Assembly (NCBI GenBank): GCA_045123255.1
Contig: JBGVIN010000010.1
Location: forward strand, 3,044 to 67,043
DNA length: 64,000 nucleotides
Reading direction: 5' to 3'
Source of the DNA: Eubacteriales bacterium
GTDB taxonomy: Bacteria; Bacillota; Clostridia; Oscillospirales; CAG-272
A program made the translations under genes and the position numbers. Positions 1 through 52,442 of this stretch are shown here, piece after piece. The notes under the pieces are model-generated. The model saw nothing but the letters and a program-made list of their open reading frames with translations. It was not told where the DNA came from and searched no databases. Position 1 is the stretch's first letter. Each line of letters opens with the position of its first letter.

Positions 1-266
1 CTTTTTCCTTTGAGATATCCCATAAACCCCGAAACGCTCATTTTGGGCGGGATGCTCACTAGCATATGTATATGGTCGGGACACACTTCTCCCTCTACTA
101 TATCCACACCTTTCCATTGGCATAATTTTCGCATTATCTCTCTTATTTCTAACCGTTTTTCTGCGAAAAACACTTTCCTCCTGTATTTTGGAGCGAACAC
201 GATATGATACTTGCAATTCCATTTCGTATGTGCTAAACTATTTGTGTCTATGGCGTCTTTTTTCAT
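1..266 (-). CDS. tnpA: IS200/IS605-family Y1 (HUH) transposase TnpA, N-terminal 88 codons; remainder lies beyond the window edge
   Basis: Absent from the ORF track because it runs off the window. Manual minus-strand translation from the ATG at 264-266: MKKDAIDTNSLAHTKWNCKYHIVFAPKYRRKVFFAEKRLEIREIMRKLCQWKGVDIVEGEVCPDHIHMLVSIPPKMSVSGFMGYLKGK. The KYHIVFAPKYRR block and the HUH motif (DHIHML) are diagnostic of IS200-type TnpA. GGAGG lies 8 nt upstream of the ATG. Confidence 0.9.
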   Translation of the reverse strand, partial: MKKDAIDTNSLAHTKWNCKYHIVFAPKYRRKVFFAEKRLEIREIMRKLCQWKGVDIVEGEVCPDHIHMLVSIPPKMSVSGFMGYLKGK

Positions 267-432: not shown

Positions 433-3432
433 TTATTCGTCGTCGCCTACGCTAACAGGAAGCGCAATCAAAAGTGATTCGTAGTAATCAGCAAGCTCCT
501 TTACTTCCTTATAAGAAACGCCGCTTGGATTTTCAACGGTTTCTGTATCTTGAACGTAGAAAACCTCACCGCCGTCTATAATATAGAAGCTCATAACAAA
601 GTTAAGCGATTTTTGTGCTTCTCCCAAGCCTGTAAGCTTGATTAAATTAGTGCTGAATTCGTCGATTGCACCGTTGAGCTTAGCTACGCCGCCTCTTGGA
701 TTTCCGCTTTCGTCAAGCGGAGTGTTTTCGCCAAGTGATTTTCTGAGTGCGATAACAGAGCCGTATTCCAAGGTCAATGAATTAGACTCCTCGTAAGCTC
801 TGAGTGCTTCAACGTTTATGCAATACTTAACACTGAGCGCACCCTTGCCGTTTGATTCATTAACGGAATAACCGTAGCAAACAACGAGCGGTGGGAACGT
901 TGCGTTGCCCTCCTTAATACCGTTTCTGCACATTGTGCATCTGTAGGTAAAGTAGCCGGGTCTTGTATATCCGTCGCAGTATTCAATAGTTCCAAAGCTT
1001 TGAAGCGTGTGCGGAAGCAATTCCTTTTCCTTATCTGTGCAATCTATTTCCGTATAGGATGAGCTATTCGTCAGATTAGACACAAACATTTTATATGAGG
1101 TACCCTTTGTTTGACCGCAAGGACAGTCGGTAACGTATCTTATGCTACCTGCCTCGGTACAGGTCGAATCCGTATCTATTCTTTCGTACGCGTGTGTAAT
1201 TCCGTAGTGAATTGTATACGATGGGTATGTAACTCCGTTTTTAGCGGTTGATGAACAGGAATTGAAGCCTTGTGTTATTGACGCGTTTGTATATAACGTA
1301 ACACCGTGGCTCTGATAGAACGTATTAGCTCCGAGTGAAAGTGTGTCCGCGTGGTGATATACAACGCATGGCTTTGCACCCTTATTCATACAGCAGAAGG
1401 TGTAGTCCGTTGATAAATTGGTTACGTCCATCAAAATGATTTTTTGGAGGTAGTAAGCACAGTCAAACGGCTTATTTGCGATAGTTGAAATGCCCTTACC
1501 TACATAGAGGTATTCTACCTTTGAAGCATAGAATGCCTGCTCGCCTGAGAAATTAACGCTGCATCCGTCAACGAAATCAAGCGATTTAACTCCCGACTCC
1601 TTGAACGACTGCTTTCCAAATATATAAACCGAGCCCTTAGAGAAGGTCATTACCTCAAGCGTTGATTGACCGATAAACGCCGCTTCCTTATATTCAACCT
1701 TAGCACCCGTAACGTCGGATCTTATCGACTTAATTGTTTTGGGCGCACATTCCTTTTCAAATACAAGATTTGACGTGTTCTCAATTACTATATTTTCGAG
1801 ATTTGTAAGTCCCTTCAAGCTTGTAACCGTTACGTCAGCTCCCTCACCGAATGTGATGGTTTTAACGCTTGCGTTAGGATTGAGTACCGTAATTTTAACC
1901 TCTGAAATGCCCGCAGGGATATATATTCCGACAATTTGGTCTGCCGTATATGAGCCAAATGCCTTTACTGCCTTTACGGTATATTTTTGAGTTGCCTCAT
2001 CCTGCAAAACGTCAAACACCTCGTTAACCTTTGCGCTAACGCTTTGCTCCGTGCCGCCAACGTTTACAATAATTGTGATTTCATCATTTACCGGATTATA
2101 GTAAATATATTCGTATTTAACACAGGAGCAATCTTCACAGAAATATTTGTCCCAGCCAGGTACAGTTTTCGTAGGGTCCTTGTGTTGGGAAGGAGTGCTT
2201 GGGAAGCTATGCTCGCCTACTGTGCCGTACGAAATGCGAATGTGAGATTCACAGCTTACCTTTGTGCAATAGAAATTATCGTACGTTGCGTGGTTACAGT
2301 TAGCCGCTTGGGTGTTGTTAAGCTCATATTCGTGCTCGCACGGTGTAAATGAAACAACCGTCTTGTACGTAACGCCGTTTGAGCCTGTAAGCTCGATTAC
2401 TTCATAGATAGCTTCATCTATCGTTTGATTAAGCATATCGTAATCCGCCGCGTTTGCAAAGGTAAACGAGCCGCCTGAAATTGTAAAAACCGCGCCGTTT
2501 CTTTCGATATCGTCGAAAAAGCTTTCGGTGGTTGACGTGGTTGTTATGTTACCGCCGTAGATATTTACGTTAATGTTATTACCTGTTACGGTGTGACGAA
2601 GGAACGGACCGCTTATGTTAAGCTGTGCGCCGTCGTAAATTTCAACACGTGGATATCTGTTTGTCGAGTGCGACATTTGAAGCACTGTTTTACAGTTAAC
2701 AATACCGTAAATTTGAATACGTGGGAAGCCTGAAATATTCCAGTCGTTACCGTCCCTACTAAGAACGGAGTTCGGCGCATTTATCGTAACGCCGCTACCT
2801 ACAAACAAACGGCAATGGTCACCGCCCCACGCATGGTTGTAAAGATCTATAAACGTACCCGAGCCAAGATATTCAATTGTACCCGTGCCGTAGAAATGCG
2901 AGCCGTGACGCGAGCCGCCCCAAGCTGTACTAACGCTTGATGCAACGGTTATCTTATGACCGTTAAGAAGGAAGAACGACTCGTATCCCGTTCCGCCACC
3001 GGCAAAGCCAAGCTTCTTCGGTAGCTCCAAATCGTTCATAATTCTTACCTTACATCCGTCCGCACTTACAAGCTTATCTAATTCCTCGTAGGTATAAACG
3101 TCGATGGTGGTGATAGGGAAAAGCTTCGCGCTCTCGTAAAACGTAACGGTAGTGCCGCCCTCCCAAGCGCGTCCGTCCTCGGTGTACCAGTTAAAGGAGC
3201 TACCTGCGGAAACCGCCTTTGACGGAAGCATAACCGTTTCTCCGCGATGGATATCGGCAACGCCCTCGATTATTACGTTGGTATTGATGCTTTTGTCAAT
3301 AGCATTACCCGTAGTATAGAATTCAATAGAAATAATATCACTCGGTGCTGCATAAACCATAGTGGCAAACAAAACGCCCACTATAAGGGTAAGAAGCAAG
3401 GTGAGTATAATTTTCCCTTTCGTTTTCATCAT
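433..3432 (-). CDS. secreted cell-surface protein with BspA-type leucine-rich repeats, Cys-rich modules and a C-terminal domain shared with the 570-aa protein
   Basis: 999-aa ORF. Signal peptide MMKTKGKIILTLLLTLIVGVLFATMVYA. AAGGAG RBS upstream. LRR_5-like stretch (FGKQSFKESGVKSLDFVDGCSVNFSGEQAFYASKVEYLYVGKGISTIANKPFDCAYYLQKIILMD). Cys clusters (TCTEAGSIRYVTDCPCG, YRCTMCRNG). Confidence 0.75.
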   Translation of the reverse strand: MMKTKGKIILTLLLTLIVGVLFATMVYAAPSDIISIEFYTTGNAIDKSINTNVIIEGVADIHRGETVMLPSKAVSAGSSFNWYTEDGRAWEGGTTVTFYESAKLFPITTIDVYTYEELDKLVSADGCKVRIMNDLELPKKLGFAGGGTGYESFFLLNGHKITVASSVSTAWGGSRHGSHFYGTGTIEYLGSGTFIDLYNHAWGGDHCRLFVGSGVTINAPNSVLSRDGNDWNISGFPRIQIYGIVNCKTVLQMSHSTNRYPRVEIYDGAQLNISGPFLRHTVTGNNINVNIYGGNITTTSTTESFFDDIERNGAVFTISGGSFTFANAADYDMLNQTIDEAIYEVIELTGSNGVTYKTVVSFTPCEHEYELNNTQAANCNHATYDNFYCTKVSCESHIRISYGTVGEHSFPSTPSQHKDPTKTVPGWDKYFCEDCSCVKYEYIYYNPVNDEITIIVNVGGTEQSVSAKVNEVFDVLQDEATQKYTVKAVKAFGSYTADQIVGIYIPAGISEVKITVLNPNASVKTITFGEGADVTVTSLKGLTNLENIVIENTSNLVFEKECAPKTIKSIRSDVTGAKVEYKEAAFIGQSTLEVMTFSKGSVYIFGKQSFKESGVKSLDFVDGCSVNFSGEQAFYASKVEYLYVGKGISTIANKPFDCAYYLQKIILMDVTNLSTDYTFCCMNKGAKPCVVYHHADTLSLGANTFYQSHGVTLYTNASITQGFNSCSSTAKNGVTYPSYTIHYGITHAYERIDTDSTCTEAGSIRYVTDCPCGQTKGTSYKMFVSNLTNSSSYTEIDCTDKEKELLPHTLQSFGTIEYCDGYTRPGYFTYRCTMCRNGIKEGNATFPPLVVCYGYSVNESNGKGALSVKYCINVEALRAYEESNSLTLEYGSVIALRKSLGENTPLDESGNPRGGVAKLNGAIDEFSTNLIKLTGLGEAQKSLNFVMSFYIIDGGEVFYVQDTETVENPSGVSYKEVKELADYYESLLIALPVSVGDDE

Positions 3433-8582: not shown

Positions 8583-9353
8583 ATGAACGAACAAAACAAA
8601 AATAACATACCCGAGCGCGAGTCTAACGCCGCGAGGCGAATTCGATTGCTCGGCATAGAAAACGACGATAAAATTCATGATACCTCGCGAGAAATAACCA
8701 AGGGCAATTTTTTCGCCAACCTTTGGTATAAGCACAAGTGGCCGCTTATTATAGGAGCATTTTTCTTGGTTGTAATTATCGCGCTTAGCACAACTATAAT
8801 TTATCAAAGGCTTACAGCGGCAGATATGTCTATTGCCTACAACGGGCCAAAGGAAATTACAAAGGCGGAGCTTGACAAGGCAAATTCAATCTTTTTAGAG
8901 CTTGTCCCGGATTACACGAAAAACGGCAAGGTTGAGATTGATTGGACAAAAAACAGATACTTAACTGACGAGCAGTTTAGATTGGAAAACGGTGGCAAGG
9001 ATATGACACAGCCACAAAAGCAAGCAATGGGTCAGGCATATGACCAAATCAGCAATATGATAGCATATAGCGACTATGACTTTTTGCTCCTCGATACCGC
9101 GATTTATGACGAATTTGCATCAAGCTTTTTCGCACTTACCGACCTATTTCCCGATAAGGATTATAGTGAAATTTCGTACAAGGGGTGCGGCGTTTACCTT
9201 TGGAAAACGGAATTTGCAAAGCAAAATCCCGAGCTGCTTTCAATTTTCCCCAAGGACACCGTCATTTGCATACCAAAGCTGATGAGCAAAAGCCACGATA
9301 AGGAAGCCGCGCTCTTAAAAGCGATTTTAGAGTACGAAAAGGCGTCGGAATAA
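8583..9353 (+). CDS. hypothetical membrane-anchored protein (single N-proximal TM)
   Basis: 256-aa ORF with a GGAG RBS. TM segment WPLIIGAFFLVVIIALSTTIIY. Followed by a terminator at 9372-9396. Confidence 0.6.
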   Translation: MNEQNKNNIPERESNAARRIRLLGIENDDKIHDTSREITKGNFFANLWYKHKWPLIIGAFFLVVIIALSTTIIYQRLTAADMSIAYNGPKEITKAELDKANSIFLELVPDYTKNGKVEIDWTKNRYLTDEQFRLENGGKDMTQPQKQAMGQAYDQISNMIAYSDYDFLLLDTAIYDEFASSFFALTDLFPDKDYSEISYKGCGVYLWKTEFAKQNPELLSIFPKDTVICIPKLMSKSHDKEAALLKAILEYEKASE

Positions 9354-9371
9354 TTCATATTTAACATAAAA

Positions 9372-9396
9372 AGCAGACACAGGGTCTGCTTTTTGT
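9372..9396 (+). terminator. rho-independent terminator
   Basis: AGCAGAC-ACAGG-GTCTGCT followed by TTTTTG. Confidence 0.75.
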
Positions 9397-9404
9397 GTTG
9401 TCAC

Positions 9405-9620
9405 AGATGCATTCGGGGAGAAAATGCACGCAAGCGCGAGGTTATACAATCCTGCGGATTGGTGATATACACACATTCGTGTGATGATATGCAACTCCGT
9501 TGGAATTGATGATATACACCTGCGGTGATGATATGCAACGCCAAGGCGTTGATTGAACCGTAGGTGCAATTCACGAATCTCCCGCGAAAATAGACTCCTC
9601 GACAGGCTCGGAATGACAGG
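9405..9620 (-). repeat. composite hairpin-array element, copy E1 (CATTCCGAGC module + GTAG hairpin + CATATCAT/palindrome array)
   Basis: The reverse complement reads CATTCCGAGCCTGTCGAGGAG...GGGAGATTCGTGAATTGCACCTACGGTTCAAT. This is followed by caacgccttggcgttg CATATCAT caccgcaggtg TATATCAT caattccaacggagttg CATATCAT cacacgaatgtgtg TATATCAC caatccgcaggattg. Collinear with 14108-14262 and 36536-36736. Confidence 0.8.
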
Positions 9621-9638
9621 AAAAACAATGGGCGCATT

Positions 9639-9710
9639 GTAGGGGAGGCAATCTGCCTCCCGCACAAACGGTACGCACCGACAAAACAGGAGGATAATAT
9701 CCTCCCCTAC
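9639..9710. repeat. inverted doublet of GTAG-headed hairpins (REP/REPIN-like)
   Basis: GTAGGGGAGGCAATCTGCCTCCCGC (9639-9663, plus) faces GTAGGGGAGGATATTATCCTCC (9689-9710, minus). The same doublet with the same 28-nt spacer recurs, inverted, at 14310-14382. Confidence 0.8.
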
Positions 9711-9730
9711 AGTTCTGAATGAGGTGTTAA

Positions 9731-9820
9731 GCAGAACACGGCTTAAAACCGCAAAAGAAAACGCCCTGCTTTAGGCAGAGCGTTTCCATATATATTGAAC
9801 TAAGTCTATAAGCTGATGAC
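9731..9820 (-). repeat. degenerate second copy of the rnpB 3' end plus its terminator
   Basis: 9731-9820 aligns with 9935-10027. Shared blocks: GCAGAACACGGC..AAAAGAAAA..GCTTTAGGC..TTTCCATAT..TGAACTAA.TCTATAAGC. About three quarters of positions are identical by eye. Confidence 0.7.
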
Positions 9821-9987: not shown

Positions 9988-9999
9988 TTTCCATATTAA

Positions 10000-10361
10000 G
10001 TGAACTAAATCTATAAGCCGTGTTCTGTATTCGACGGTCATCTATCTTTGCCTTACGTCACCGTAAGGCTCCGCAAAATTGCGTGCCACCCATGGGAACG
10101 GCTTACGCCTTATCGAGCAAATAAAATTCCCATATGCGGTGTTGCTTCGGATAGGGTTTACACCTACTCTACGTTACCGTAGAATATCGTGAGCTCTTAC
10201 CTCGCGTTTTCATCCTTACCCTTTCGGGCGGTAGTTTTCTGTTGCACTTTCCCGGGAGTCGCCTCCGACTGACGTTATCAGTTACCCTGCTCTGTGAAGC
10301 ACGGACTTTCCTCACGCTAATACCTTTCGGCTCCATAGCGCGCAACCGTCCAACTTAGTTC
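10000..10361 (-). ncRNA. rnpB: RNase P RNA, bacterial class A
   Basis: Minus strand contains the universal blocks GAGGAAAGUCCGUGC (P4 5' strand), CAGGGUAACUGAUAACGUCAG, AGUGCAACAGAAA, GGGUAAGGAUGAAA..GGUAAGAGCUCACG and AGAUAGAUGACCGUCGAAUACAGAACACGGCUUAUAG. P1 pairs GAACUAAGU with AUUUAGUUC. A consensus promoter places the 5' end near 10361. Confidence 0.93.
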
Positions 10362-13392: not shown

Positions 13393-13403
13393 TTGACTAC
13401 ATA

Positions 13404-13435
13404 TAGCGTGATACTCCGTTAAGAGTATCACGCTA
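13404..13435 (+). other. 13-bp perfect hairpin directly after the stop codon (no T-run)
   Basis: TAGCGTGATACTC-CGTTAA-GAGTATCACGCTA. Confidence 0.5.
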
Positions 13436-13437
13436 AA

Positions 13438-13590
13438 CTATGATTGCCCTTGCGGGCAAGTTATGAGTTATGATATGCTTCGCATAGTTATGATTGGGCA
13501 ACGCCCAAGTTACAGATTAGATAGGCAATCATATCATAACATTTGCGCAGCAAATTCATAACGGCGAGCATAGCGAGCCTCATAACTCTA
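13438..13590. repeat. hairpin array built on the word GTTATGA (left half) and its complement TCATAAC (right half)
   Basis: GTTATGA at 13460, 13467 and 13487. TCATAAC at 13534, 13556 and 13580. Interleaved with palindromes ttgcccttgcgggcaa, tatgcttcgcata, ttgggcaacgcccaa and atttgcgcagcaaat. Confidence 0.75.
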
Positions 13591-13609
13591 AACTAAAACC
13601 GACAGAAAA

Positions 13610-13660
13610 AGAGCAGACACATAAGGTCTTATACCTTGAGTGTTTGCTCTTGTTTTTCTT
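13610..13660 (+). terminator. rho-independent terminator about 220 nt downstream of the 12910-13392 gene
   Basis: Long hairpin AGAGCAGACAC...GTGTTTGCTCT followed by TGTTTTTCTTT. Places the GTTATGA array inside a probable 3' UTR. Confidence 0.55.
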
Positions 13661-13664
13661 TATG

Positions 13665-13745
13665 TCGATATGTGGGCTTTGCCCACTCGATATGTTATCG
13701 CTTTGCTCGAACTCGATATATTGTCGCTACGCGCTAATTCGATAT
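13665..13745 (+). repeat. hairpin array built on the word TCGATAT
   Basis: TCGATAT at 13665, 13687, 13713 and 13739 (periods 22, 26, 26), separated by GC-rich quasi-palindromes. The first, gtgggctttgcccac, is perfect. Confidence 0.65.
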
Positions 13746-13808
13746 GAGATAAATCCCGCATTGGCGGTGGATAAGGTGTAGTCGTCCGTTGTAAAATAAC
13801 ATTATCTT

Positions 13809-14016
13809 GTAGGGGCGACCATTGGTCGTCCGCATTGTTGGGTGCGTTCCAATTGAAACGGGGCGTTGAGGACGTCGCTATTCGAGACAGAGACGCCGTC
13901 CCCTAAGAATAATCAACGCGCAGCGTTGTATATCATCAATGCAACGCGTTGTATATCATCACGGCGTGCCGTGTATATCACCACGCATTTGCGTGCATAT
14001 CATCAACCGTAGGTTG
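13809..14016 (+). repeat. GTAG hairpin plus CATATCAT/palindrome array (partial composite copy)
   Basis: GTAGGGGCGACCATTGGTCGTCCGC (13809-13833). Then caacgcgcagcgttg TATATCAT caatgcaacgcgttg TATATCAT cacggcgtgccgtg TATATCAC cacgcatttgcgtg CATATCAT caaccgtaggttg (13914-14016). Confidence 0.8.
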
Positions 14017-14107: not shown

Positions 14108-14262
14108 CCGTCATTCCGAGCGTAGCCGAGGAATCCCCGCAGACGGGCGATTCGTGAATCGCCCCTACGGTATAATCAACGCCTCGGCGTTGTATATCAT
14201 CACGGTTTACCGTGTATATCATCAACCCGCAGGATTGTATATCACCACGCTTTCGTGCATTT
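14108..14262 (+). repeat. composite hairpin-array element, copy E2
   Basis: CATTCCGAGCGTAGCCGAGGAATCCCCGCAGACGGGCGATTCGTGAATCGCCCCTACGGTATAAT. Then caacgcctcggcgttg TATATCAT cacggtttaccgtg TATATCAT caacccgcaggattg TATATCAC cacgctttcgtg. Confidence 0.8.
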
Positions 14263-14265
14263 TTT

Positions 14266-14440
14266 GCGGACAACCAATGGTTGCCCCTACGGTGAATTTT
14301 GTTTTGTTTGTAGGGGAGGATATTATCCTCCCATTTCGTTCGGTGCGTACCGTTTGTGCGGGAGGCAGATTGCCTCCCCTACAATGCACCCATCGTTTTC
14401 TCTGTCATTCCGAGCGTAGCCGAGGAATCCCCGCGGATTG
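14266..14440. repeat. GTAG hairpins: single unit (14266-14290, minus), inverted doublet (14310-14382) and a CATTCCGAGC module (14405-14435)
   Basis: GCGGACAACCAATGGTTGCCCCTAC. GTAGGGGAGGATATTATCCTCCC ... GGAGGCAGATTGCCTCCCCTAC. TCATTCCGAGCGTAGCCGAGGAATCCCC. Confidence 0.8.
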
Positions 14441-36339: not shown

Positions 36340-36535
36340 TCCTTCGGCAAGCTCAGGATGACGGAAGCCGAGCACCCATAACGTCATTCCAAGCGTGCCA
36401 CCCCCCACATTGGCAACATCTCATCCGCAACCGTAGGGGCGACCATTGGTCGGCTGTTTATTCTCCGTTCATTCGCACACCATTATTCACGGACAGTCGG
36501 GGACGCCTGTCCCTACGGGGGTCACACCATTTTCG
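36340..36535. repeat. cluster of REP-like units upstream of the giant gene
   Basis: CATTCCAAGCGTGCC module near 36385. GTAGGGGCGACCATTGGTCGGCTG (36433-36453, plus). GTCGGGGACGCCTGTCCCTAC (36496-36517, minus orientation). Confidence 0.7.
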
Positions 36536-36736
36536 CCTATCATTCCGAGCGTAGCCGAGAAATCTACGTTTACGGGCGATTCGTGAATCGCCCCTACGGT
36601 ACAATCAACGCCTTGGCGTTGCATATCATCAACCGTAGGTTGCATATCATCAATTCCAACGGAATTGCATATCATCACCACAGGTGTATATCATCAATCC
36701 ACAGGATTGCATATAATCACCGCAGGTGCATATCAG
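36536..36736 (+). repeat. composite hairpin-array element, copy E3
   Basis: CATTCCGAGCGTAGCCGAGAAATC...ACGGGCGATTCGTGAATCGCCCCTACGGTACAAT, followed by six hairpins. They are caacgccttggcgttg (36606-36621), caaccgtaggttg (36630-36642), caattccaacggaattg (36651-36667), caccacaggtg (36676-36686), caatccacaggattg (36695-36709) and caccgcaggtg (36718-36728). Each is separated by CATATCAT, TATATCAT or CATATAAT. Confidence 0.85.
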
Positions 36737-52137: not shown

Positions 52138-52442
52138 GTAGGGGATAGTGAAATGAGTGTTGACCCACTCCTTGAAATTGCACTCAATTTCAAGGAACCC
52201 TCGGGGAGGCGTGAACACGGGAACGTCGGCGTACTGGCGTACGGTAGAGCCCGTGGTCGCGTCTAAAAAACAGACATAAAAAGAAGAGAACTTGCAACAA
52301 ATTGCAAGTTCTCAACATTAAATCGTTCTAAAATAAACAAATAAACTTGATTTTATTTAGGAATGCGTCTGTTTTTGATCTGTGCTTATTACGCGAGTAA
52401 CAAGGTTCTGCGTAGCAGGTTCTTATTGCAACATTCCCTTTG
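52108..52442 (-). repeat. interspersed element, copy 2 (~330 bp; two extra segments relative to copy 1)
   Basis: Collinear with the reverse complement of 4572-4822. One extra segment of about 45 nt lies near 52161-52207. A 31-nt segment at 52392-52422 is flanked by the direct repeat CTTATT (52386-52391 / 52423-52428). Confidence 0.85.
52275..52313 (-). terminator. rho-independent terminator of the tkt operon, carried inside the repeat element
   Basis: Perfect 12-bp stem GAGAACTTGCAA-TTTG-TTGCAAGTTCTC followed by TTCTTTTTAT on the minus strand, 133 nt after the tkt stop. Confidence 0.8.

Follow-up and report, generated by a model that had tools for sequence, protein, structure and literature searches.

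In Escherichia coli, REPs carry GTAG at the foot of a hairpin and are served by an HUH/Y1 enzyme, TnpA_REP (YafM; PDB 4ER8), whose GTAG-contact residues are W94, Q95, E100, H101 and R104 (listed in PMC6006769); the palindromes are imperfect and bulged, occur in hundreds of copies, and two types (Y and Z) are combined in inverted orientation with defined linkers as BIMEs (Ton-Hoang 2012; Messing 2012). In the REPs of Stenotrophomonas maltophilia, which are 23 nt long, GTAG is followed by a perfect 8-bp stem with a 3-nt loop; cleavage requires GTAG and the top strand alone is active (Corneloup et al. 2021, PMC8266576). The TnpA_REP of that species belongs to another subclass (2.5, group 3) of Proteobacteria and is without in-gene REPs. 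In the REPIN-RAYT system of Pseudomonas, a low-copy RAYT accompanies inverted doublets with a short spacer that persist at fixed sites, and the two like arms of a REPIN form one long hairpin (Bertels and Rainey 2011, PMC3116915). A further kind is TnpA_Y1 subclass 2.4 (Quentin et al. 2018, PMC6006769), which corresponds to RAYT group 4 (Bertels et al. 2017, PMC5581495). Its REPs have three G-C pairs at the bottom of the stem, double-foot REPs occur, and a trait unique to this subclass is the insertion of REPs, in frame and as a rule between HUH and Y, into tnpA_REP itself (PMC6006769). The hosts given for group 4 are Cyanobacteria, Chlorobia and Caldilineae, with Clostridia mentioned for group 1 only (PMC5581495); Firmicutes are not mentioned in the work that defined HH, TT and HT dimers (Di Nocera et al. 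2013), and Clostridia are not named in the available part of the supplements to PMC6006769. A literature search for RAYTs in Firmicutes or Clostridia returned microbiome papers only.

Here we describe GTAG-headed hairpins in a 64,000-nucleotide stretch (the window) of a clostridial genome of the CAG-272 lineage, corresponding to contig C10:3044-67043 of a 1.996-Mb draft assembly in 125 contigs with 42.5% GC. We propose that the hairpins are, in all likelihood, REP elements arranged in the BIME-like mosaics and doublets of a REP/RAYT system, their mobilisation being argued from analogy with the enzymes above. As in E. coli, GTAG lies at the hairpin foot, the predicted HUH/Y1 enzymes have the same contact and catalytic residues, and two REP types are inverted around defined linkers; unlike in E. 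coli, the palindromes are perfect (the stem sets having been selected for perfect pairing), number about 69 and are accompanied by three RAYT-like genes that themselves contain REPs. Several classes are identical in geometry to the S. maltophilia REPs. The inverted doublets, short spacers, low-copy RAYT-like genes and persistence at fixed sites recall Pseudomonas, although here the arms are unlike and form separate hairpins. A likeness to IS200/IS605 elements lies in the use of a Y1 HUH enzyme on subterminal ssDNA hairpins, an action that would apply here by analogy, whereas the RAYT-like genes are not identical multi-copy elements.

Results

Hairpin units of the window

The window contains ten intact units of GTAG plus hairpin and two decayed ones, spread over three intergenic mosaics. 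They share a layout in which YY-GTAG is followed by a perfect stem, opening with GGG and closing with CCC around a loop of 2-4 nt, and then by G. When folded as ssDNA, all ten intact units began their stem directly after GTAG (dG -5.5 to -9.2 kcal/mol, z -2.65 to -4.5). GTAGGGG occurs ten times against 2.07 expected, a count reached in none of 100 shuffles, and nine of the ten occurrences head a hairpin. The exception, at 52138, belongs to a multi-copy sequence TTTTAGTAGGGGATAGTGAAATGAGTG... that is also found at C23:34223, C47:55, C111:3814, C116:74 and C118:8117, often at contig ends; it is probably the end of an insertion sequence or another repeat unrelated to the REPs.

The first mosaic (9395-9730, about 300 nt) occupies the spacer between the terminator of a gene and the gene for RNase P RNA. 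Its inverted doublet (9637-9712) consists of an R-type arm of class GGGAGGCA-atc-TGCCTCCC (9639-9663, + strand; dG -9.2, z -4.5), a conserved linker ACAAACGGTACGCACCGACAAAAC (9664-9685), in which alignment and folding place a small central hairpin CGGT-acgc-ACCG, and an L-type arm of class GGGAGGAT-att-ATCCTCC(t) (9686-9710, - strand), a class that also occurs within the RAYT-like gene of contig C2. A decayed class-1 REP, GTAGGTGCAATTCACGAATCTCCCG, lies at 9560-9584 (+) with no fold left (z -0.1). In the second mosaic, folding supports a REP of class GGGCGACC-att-GGTCG(t)CC at 13809-13833 (+) and one of class GGGCAACC-att-GGTTG(t)CC at 14266-14290 (-); between them stands a class-1 REP, GGGCGATTC-ac-GAATCGCCC (14144-14168, -), identical to the REPs in and around the RAYT-like gene on contig C9. 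The second doublet (14308-14384) is inverted relative to the first, with an L-type arm of class GGGAGGAT-att-ATCCTCCC at 14310-14334 (+), a second copy of the linker at 14335-14357 and an R-type arm of class GGGAGGCA-atc-TGCCTCCC at 14358-14382 (-). The third mosaic holds a REP of class GGGCGACC-att-GGTCG with a decayed 3' foot (36433-36457, +), a REP with a 6-bp stem and a 10-nt loop (GGACAG-gcgtccccga-CTGTCC; 36489-36516, -) of the class found inside the RAYT-like gene on contig C106, and another class-1 REP (36573-36597, -).

A first-pass annotation of this DNA had listed these units, and each was found again on reading the three regions, including the decayed one, which it had placed near 9563-9590. 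Its unit ACAGGCGTCC is indeed present as the tenth well-formed unit, although the head is GTAGGGA and the coordinates are 36489-36516 rather than 36496-36517; an additional degenerate unit, with TTAG for GTAG, lies at 13860-13907 (-), where it terminates a hairpin/linker array. The inverted pair of doublets also stood up to inspection, with the exception of the identical 28-nt spacer claimed for it. The two doublets match exactly over their first 44 nt (one arm plus 19 nt of linker), and the last 9 linker bases contain one indel and three substitutions; with four differences between the copies, the spacer is therefore not an identical 28-mer. No T-run was seen 3' of the stems in the three regions, and an Rfam search of the window gave only RNase P at gathering scores, with nothing meaningful on 9350-9800 at E<=5. 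The RNase P RNA itself (bacterial class A, 235.5 bits) occupies 9998-10361 (-), the REP mosaic lying just past its 3' end.

Other repeats and neighbouring features

Arrays of tiny hairpins with varied stems, joined by the linker TGATGATATRC, accompany the REPs at 9437-9559 (+), 13905-14012 (-), 14169-14262 (-) and 36598-36730 (-). The last unit of the first array meets the decayed REP through a junction of GCGTTGATTGAACC with GTAG, and the third and fourth arrays end in the class-1 REPs at 14144-14168 and 36573-36597 respectively. Genome-wide there are 49 arrays with at least two such linkers; the array at 9437-9559 is part of its mosaic, yet such arrays are a separate repeat family, and the match to Rfam Gut-1 is weak (16.8 bits against a cut-off of 50). 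More hairpin/linker arrays, with linkers GTTATGA and TCGATAT, were noted at 13393-13760 within a 1.37-kb non-coding stretch downstream of a giant ORF. This ORF (14760-35822, -) encodes 7,020 amino acids rich in T, G, A, V and N with an N-terminal signal peptide, has REP mosaics on both sides, and gave no Pfam match in its first or last 2,500 residues.

A 26-nt unit, GATTCCTCGGCTACGCTCGGAATGAC, lies 3' of class-1 REPs at 14110-14135 (-), with copies at 14404-14429 (-) and 36539-36564 (-) and a diverged one at 9593-9617 (+). The genome holds 11 copies, with compensatory variants in a 5-bp stem (ATTCC/GGAAT, ATCCC/GGGAT, ATCCT/AGGAT); the unit is often found after a class-1 REP and ahead of a doublet, so that array, REP, unit and doublet together make up a super-unit.

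Genome-wide census, classes and doublets

The strict pattern GTAGGGG-N11-17-CCCG matched 47 times in the genome against 1-2 times in first-order Markov genomes, so that here, as in the window, the units are far above shuffled or random expectation, the comparison by which the first-pass annotation had meant its reading to be judged. A folding-based census, in which a REP was defined as a GGG-clamped hairpin after GTAG, gave about 69 units with the stem directly after GTAG. A looser rule accepting any 6-bp stem after GTAG was dropped, as it yielded 184 matches against about 89 at random and control tags gave similar counts. At about 69 per 2 Mb the copy number is modest, and low compared with Proteobacteria. 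By their lower stems, in sets selected for perfect pairing, the 69 REPs fall into groups of GGGAGG (n=27), GGGCGA/GGGTCA/GGGCAA (n=24) and a 6-bp stem with a 10-nt loop (n=12), with six others that include one double-foot palindrome (C45:6938-6967). The flank consensus is (A/C)YY directly before GTAG and G-Y directly after the hairpin: a pyrimidine pair precedes GTAG in about 94% of the 69 units and the base 3' of the stem is G in 63. This direct contact of tag and stem, seen in the ten intact window units and in the 69 genome units, agrees with the definition of REPs by GT[AG]G 0-2 nt 5' of a hairpin, and most classes, with stems of 8-9 bp and loops of 2-4 nt, agree with the stem rule of PMC6006769 (at least 7 paired basal bases, loop of 2-5 nt); the 12-copy group falls outside this rule. 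All units are intergenic except six, and these six lie inside the three RAYT-like genes. Eleven of the 69 are within 600 nt of a contig end; in practical terms, these repeats break metagenome assemblies.

Another REP lies within 500 nt of 43 of the 69 units, and neighbours within 200 nt were oriented HH in 15 cases, TT in six and HT in five. Eleven HH doublets recur with gaps of 26-35 nt. Ten of them were aligned; these share the linker GTTTTGTCGGTGCGTNCCGTTTGCGC and their two arms are always of different classes (2+3 in five, 7+4 in two, 6+4 in two and 6+1 in one). On folding, a doublet forms three separate hairpins. The first-pass annotation had called the repeats REP/REPIN-like, and the REP part of that reading is supported by the excess of units and by the RAYT-like genes. 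REPINs in the strict sense, with self-complementary like arms, were not found: because the arms differ in class, the linker is conserved and the hairpins fold separately, the doublets are better described as BIME-like, and the alternating REPs, defined linkers and mosaics that characterize BIMEs are all present.

Three RAYT-like genes

A Pfam Y1_Tnp search of the genome identified six genes: two classical IS200 genes, one encoding a 253-aa helix-turn-helix protein, and three RAYT-like genes of about 170 aa (C2:9522-10025, C9:674-138 and C106:15061-15585). The three RAYT-like proteins are 37-55% identical to each other, and tblastn of the genome found no further copies or fragments beyond these genes. 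The possibility that they are IS200/IS605 elements was rejected, as no near-identical multi-copy element exists at this level of identity. With the NCBIfam model REP_Tyr_transpos they score 57.9-69.4 bits, short of its equivalog cut-off (NF047646, 80 bits), and on the IS200 model a much lower 17-19 bits. The best PDB match by sequence, and the sole significant one, is E. coli TnpA_REP (4ER8; E=1.2e-6). An AlphaFold2 model (pLDDT 85.8) likewise has 4er8_A as its top fold match (TM 0.63, rmsd 3.1 A), while comparison of the model with IS200, IS608 and ISDra2 gave TM 0.46-0.50 and rmsd 6-13 A. H89/H91, W128, Q129, D134, H135, R138, Y149 and N153 align with H59/H61, W94, Q95, E100, H101, R104, Y115 and N119 of the E. 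coli enzyme. Among 42 homologues, H89, H91, Y149 and N153 are invariant; the GTAG-contact positions show no variation at Q, H and R, D is kept in at least 90% of the homologues, and F replaces W in some. The change from E to D at a contact position also occurs in subclasses 2.5 and 2.7 (PMC6006769). Sequence and model together thus support the identification of the three genes as RAYT-like HUH/Y1 transposases of predicted activity.

The gene fragment at the start of the window (3-266, -; 1-266 in the first-pass annotation) is the 3' part of a classical IS200 tnpA and not a RAYT, as had been suspected (NCBIfam transpos_IS200, 148.7 bits). It lies outside the system: no REP is nearby, so a link of the REPs to it was rejected, and neither this copy nor the second classical IS200 copy, on contig C104, is associated with GTAG-REPs. 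The 253-aa Y1 protein (C45:13657-14418), with a C-terminal helix-turn-helix, scores 54 bits with Y1_Tnp and 75.8 bits with REP_Tyr_transpos and is similar to the class of RAYTs that have an HTH tail.

REPs inside the genes

Each RAYT-like gene contains two in-frame REPs of one class, a forward copy about 110 nt upstream of the HUH codons and a reverse copy about 70 nt downstream. The association with Y1/RAYT genes on which the first-pass annotation had staked its reading therefore exists, on other contigs than that of the window, and takes a partly different form from the flanked genes it had envisaged: all three genes carry in-frame REPs, but only the C9 gene, situated at a contig start, has its class (class 1) on both sides as well. 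In the C2 gene (class GGGAGGAT, that of the window doublets) and the C106 gene (the class at window 36489-36516) REPs are found only within the ORF. The in-gene classes match the three lower-stem groups of the dispersed REPs, and the REP-coded segments, residues 44-52 and 99-107, are lower-confidence loops in the AlphaFold2 model.

A homologue scan of species-representative genomes returned more than 557 relatives; the best 80 were nearly all from gut MAGs of Oscillospiraceae, Acutalibacteraceae and other Clostridia. In all, 77 genes could be delimited. A REP pair on both sides of HUH was present in 60 of these 77 genes from other species. The two copies within a gene were identical in 36 of the 60 paired genes and at most two edits apart in 52, while REPs of different genes differed by a mean of 7 edits and comprised 41 distinct stems. 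The forward GTAG was in codon frame 0 (Val-Gly) in 66 of 66 cases. The same position of the pair across genes, together with the near identity of its two copies, indicates that the pair is ancestral in position and evolves in concert. We note a different in-gene layout in a 42% identical homologue from a CPR bacterium (Candidatus Roizmanbacteria, LBST01000006.1), where two abutting opposed copies of GTAG-GGACAATTCATGAATTGTCC follow HUH (3256-3305) and none precedes it.

Association across genomes and turnover at orthologous sites

When 151 genomes of the order were compared, 23 were REP-rich by the strict pattern and 33 had a RAYT-like gene. Both features coincided in 17 (Fisher odds ratio 19.8, p=4.7e-9), so that the repeats co-occur with the gene across the order. 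In six REP-rich genomes, all draft assemblies, the RAYT-like gene was not found even with the NCBIfam model, which reflects either gene loss or an assembly gap; REP-bearing genes tend toward contig ends. The gene is chromosomal: among 72,556 plasmid records only 5 had a match, and among 50,697 phage records only 1. Published RAYTs are near-absent from plasmids and phages (PMC5581495).

REP sites are polymorphic among congeners. Four congeners lack the mosaic of window 9395-9730, their spacer at the orthologous position measuring only about 40-100 nt. The genes on either side of a site on contig C22 are 82-92% identical among congeners; nine of these have a CTAC-tagged REP in the same place with different stems or loops, one stem being wholly different; two others have decayed copies and one is empty. 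A site on contig C61 is occupied by one class in two species and by another class with a decayed tag in one, and is empty in two. As the stems diverge far more than their flanks, replacement fits these data better than slow mutation. A flank word had no match in metagenome contigs, and for the neighbouring protein no record was found elsewhere.

Discussion

In-frame REPs have already been described for subclass 2.4, so the clostridial system is a member of a described kind. Its assignment to the subclass 2.4 or RAYT group 4 type is probable, being made from shared traits and not from a tree. These traits are the GT[AG]G tag, the three G-C pairs at the stem bottom, in-frame in-gene REPs, a double-foot REP (C45:6938-6967), several distantly related gene copies per genome, the lack of a long C-terminal extension, and distant relatives of the gene in Chloroflexota and Bacteroidota. 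A Leptolinea relative (31% identity) is without in-gene REPs and has GTAG-GGG REPs on its flanks, most of them forward on the upstream side and reverse on the downstream side, and a Spirosoma relative has a double-foot REP at the 3' end of the gene. There are also differences: the host belongs to the Clostridia, whereas the papers on subclass 2.4 name Cyanobacteria, Bacteroidetes, Chlorobia and Caldilineae, and the REPs here stand before and after HUH at fixed codons as a concerted inverted pair. Systems of this kind are thus known from other phyla and apparently have not yet been described for Clostridia. The host group, the fixed pair around HUH, its concerted change and the replacement of stems at fixed sites are not stated in the papers cited above.

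If the enzymes act like those of E. coli and S. maltophilia, a REP would fold from its top strand wherever the DNA becomes single-stranded, the lagging-strand template being one example. The RAYT would recognize GTAG at the stem foot through the conserved W-Q...D-H..R residues, together with the hairpin, and its tyrosine would make a cut close by, for which the conserved pyrimidine pair 5' of GTAG is a possible site. Rejoining of the strands could then copy REPs or doublets to new intergenic sites or swap them between existing ones. To our knowledge, direct proof of REP transposition by a RAYT is absent even for E. coli. The shared lower stems suggest that the three stem groups may correspond to the three RAYT genes. 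The inverted pair within the gene most likely keeps the enzyme physically linked to its substrate sequence, and it may let the enzyme bind its own gene. We raise more tentatively, as a possibility we would not favour at present, that gene and substrate have been fused into one unit in this clade, with the in-frame pair as the master copy of a REP class, as an operator at which the enzyme binds or cuts the gene that encodes it, or in both roles; linked in this way, enzyme and REP could branch into dozens of classes, and the linkage would be a driver of stem replacement at fixed chromosomal sites.

One alternative explanation for the data is that the GTAG hairpins share a system with the hairpin/linker arrays, as Gut-1-type tagged mini-hairpins with another protein partner, and that the RAYT-like genes are passengers. 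Thirteen of the 49 TGATGATATRC arrays do end in a GTAG-REP through a fixed junction of GCGTTGATTRTACC with GTAG, and the common REP 5' flank, TATACC, is similar to the array linker; with a quarter of the arrays ending in a REP, a second protein partner is possible. However, the remaining 36 arrays lack a REP, just as most REPs lack an array. A GTAG tag, a GGG/CCC clamp and conservation of the residues that contact GTAG suit recognition by a RAYT, the abundance of pattern-defined REPs tracks the RAYT-like gene over the 151 genomes, and the RAYT gene itself contains the REP pair in 60 of 77 species, all of which makes the passenger role improbable. Could the hairpins instead be RNA-level elements (terminators, mRNA stabilizers or small RNAs) kept at gene 3' ends and unconnected to a transposase? 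Most units are intergenic, some closely follow a stop codon or precede a Rho-independent terminator (C41:20379 is one example), and REPs elsewhere in bacteria affect mRNA stability (PMC3733652), so the hairpins may have a secondary RNA role. As the whole explanation this is very unlikely, since the stems lack a T-run, occur in both orientations and in HH doublets and match no Rfam family, and an RNA function leaves the GTAG tag, the presence within the genes and the order-wide link to the gene unexplained.

Another possibility is that the dispersed units are no elements in their own right but remnants of RAYT genes that have decayed, or REP-HUH-REP segments with an internal deletion, given that the same hairpin sequences occur in the genes and dispersed and that the in-gene pair shares the HH orientation of the doublets. 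We find this scarcely credible: tblastn revealed the three genes and no fragments, and doublets combine different classes while one gene holds one class. An origin of the doublets by internal deletion was rejected because their linkers and the REP flanks have no similarity to the sequence beside the in-gene REPs.

The reading of the hairpins as REPs of a RAYT system places a full system of this kind, studied almost only in Proteobacteria, in uncultured gut Clostridia, and the gene family is present in hundreds of Oscillospiraceae-type genomes. These genomes amount to a natural experiment, with dozens of stem variants, each paired with an enzyme gene in which that variant occurs twice, and RAYT-REP co-evolution is thereby open to direct testing with short oligonucleotides and small proteins.
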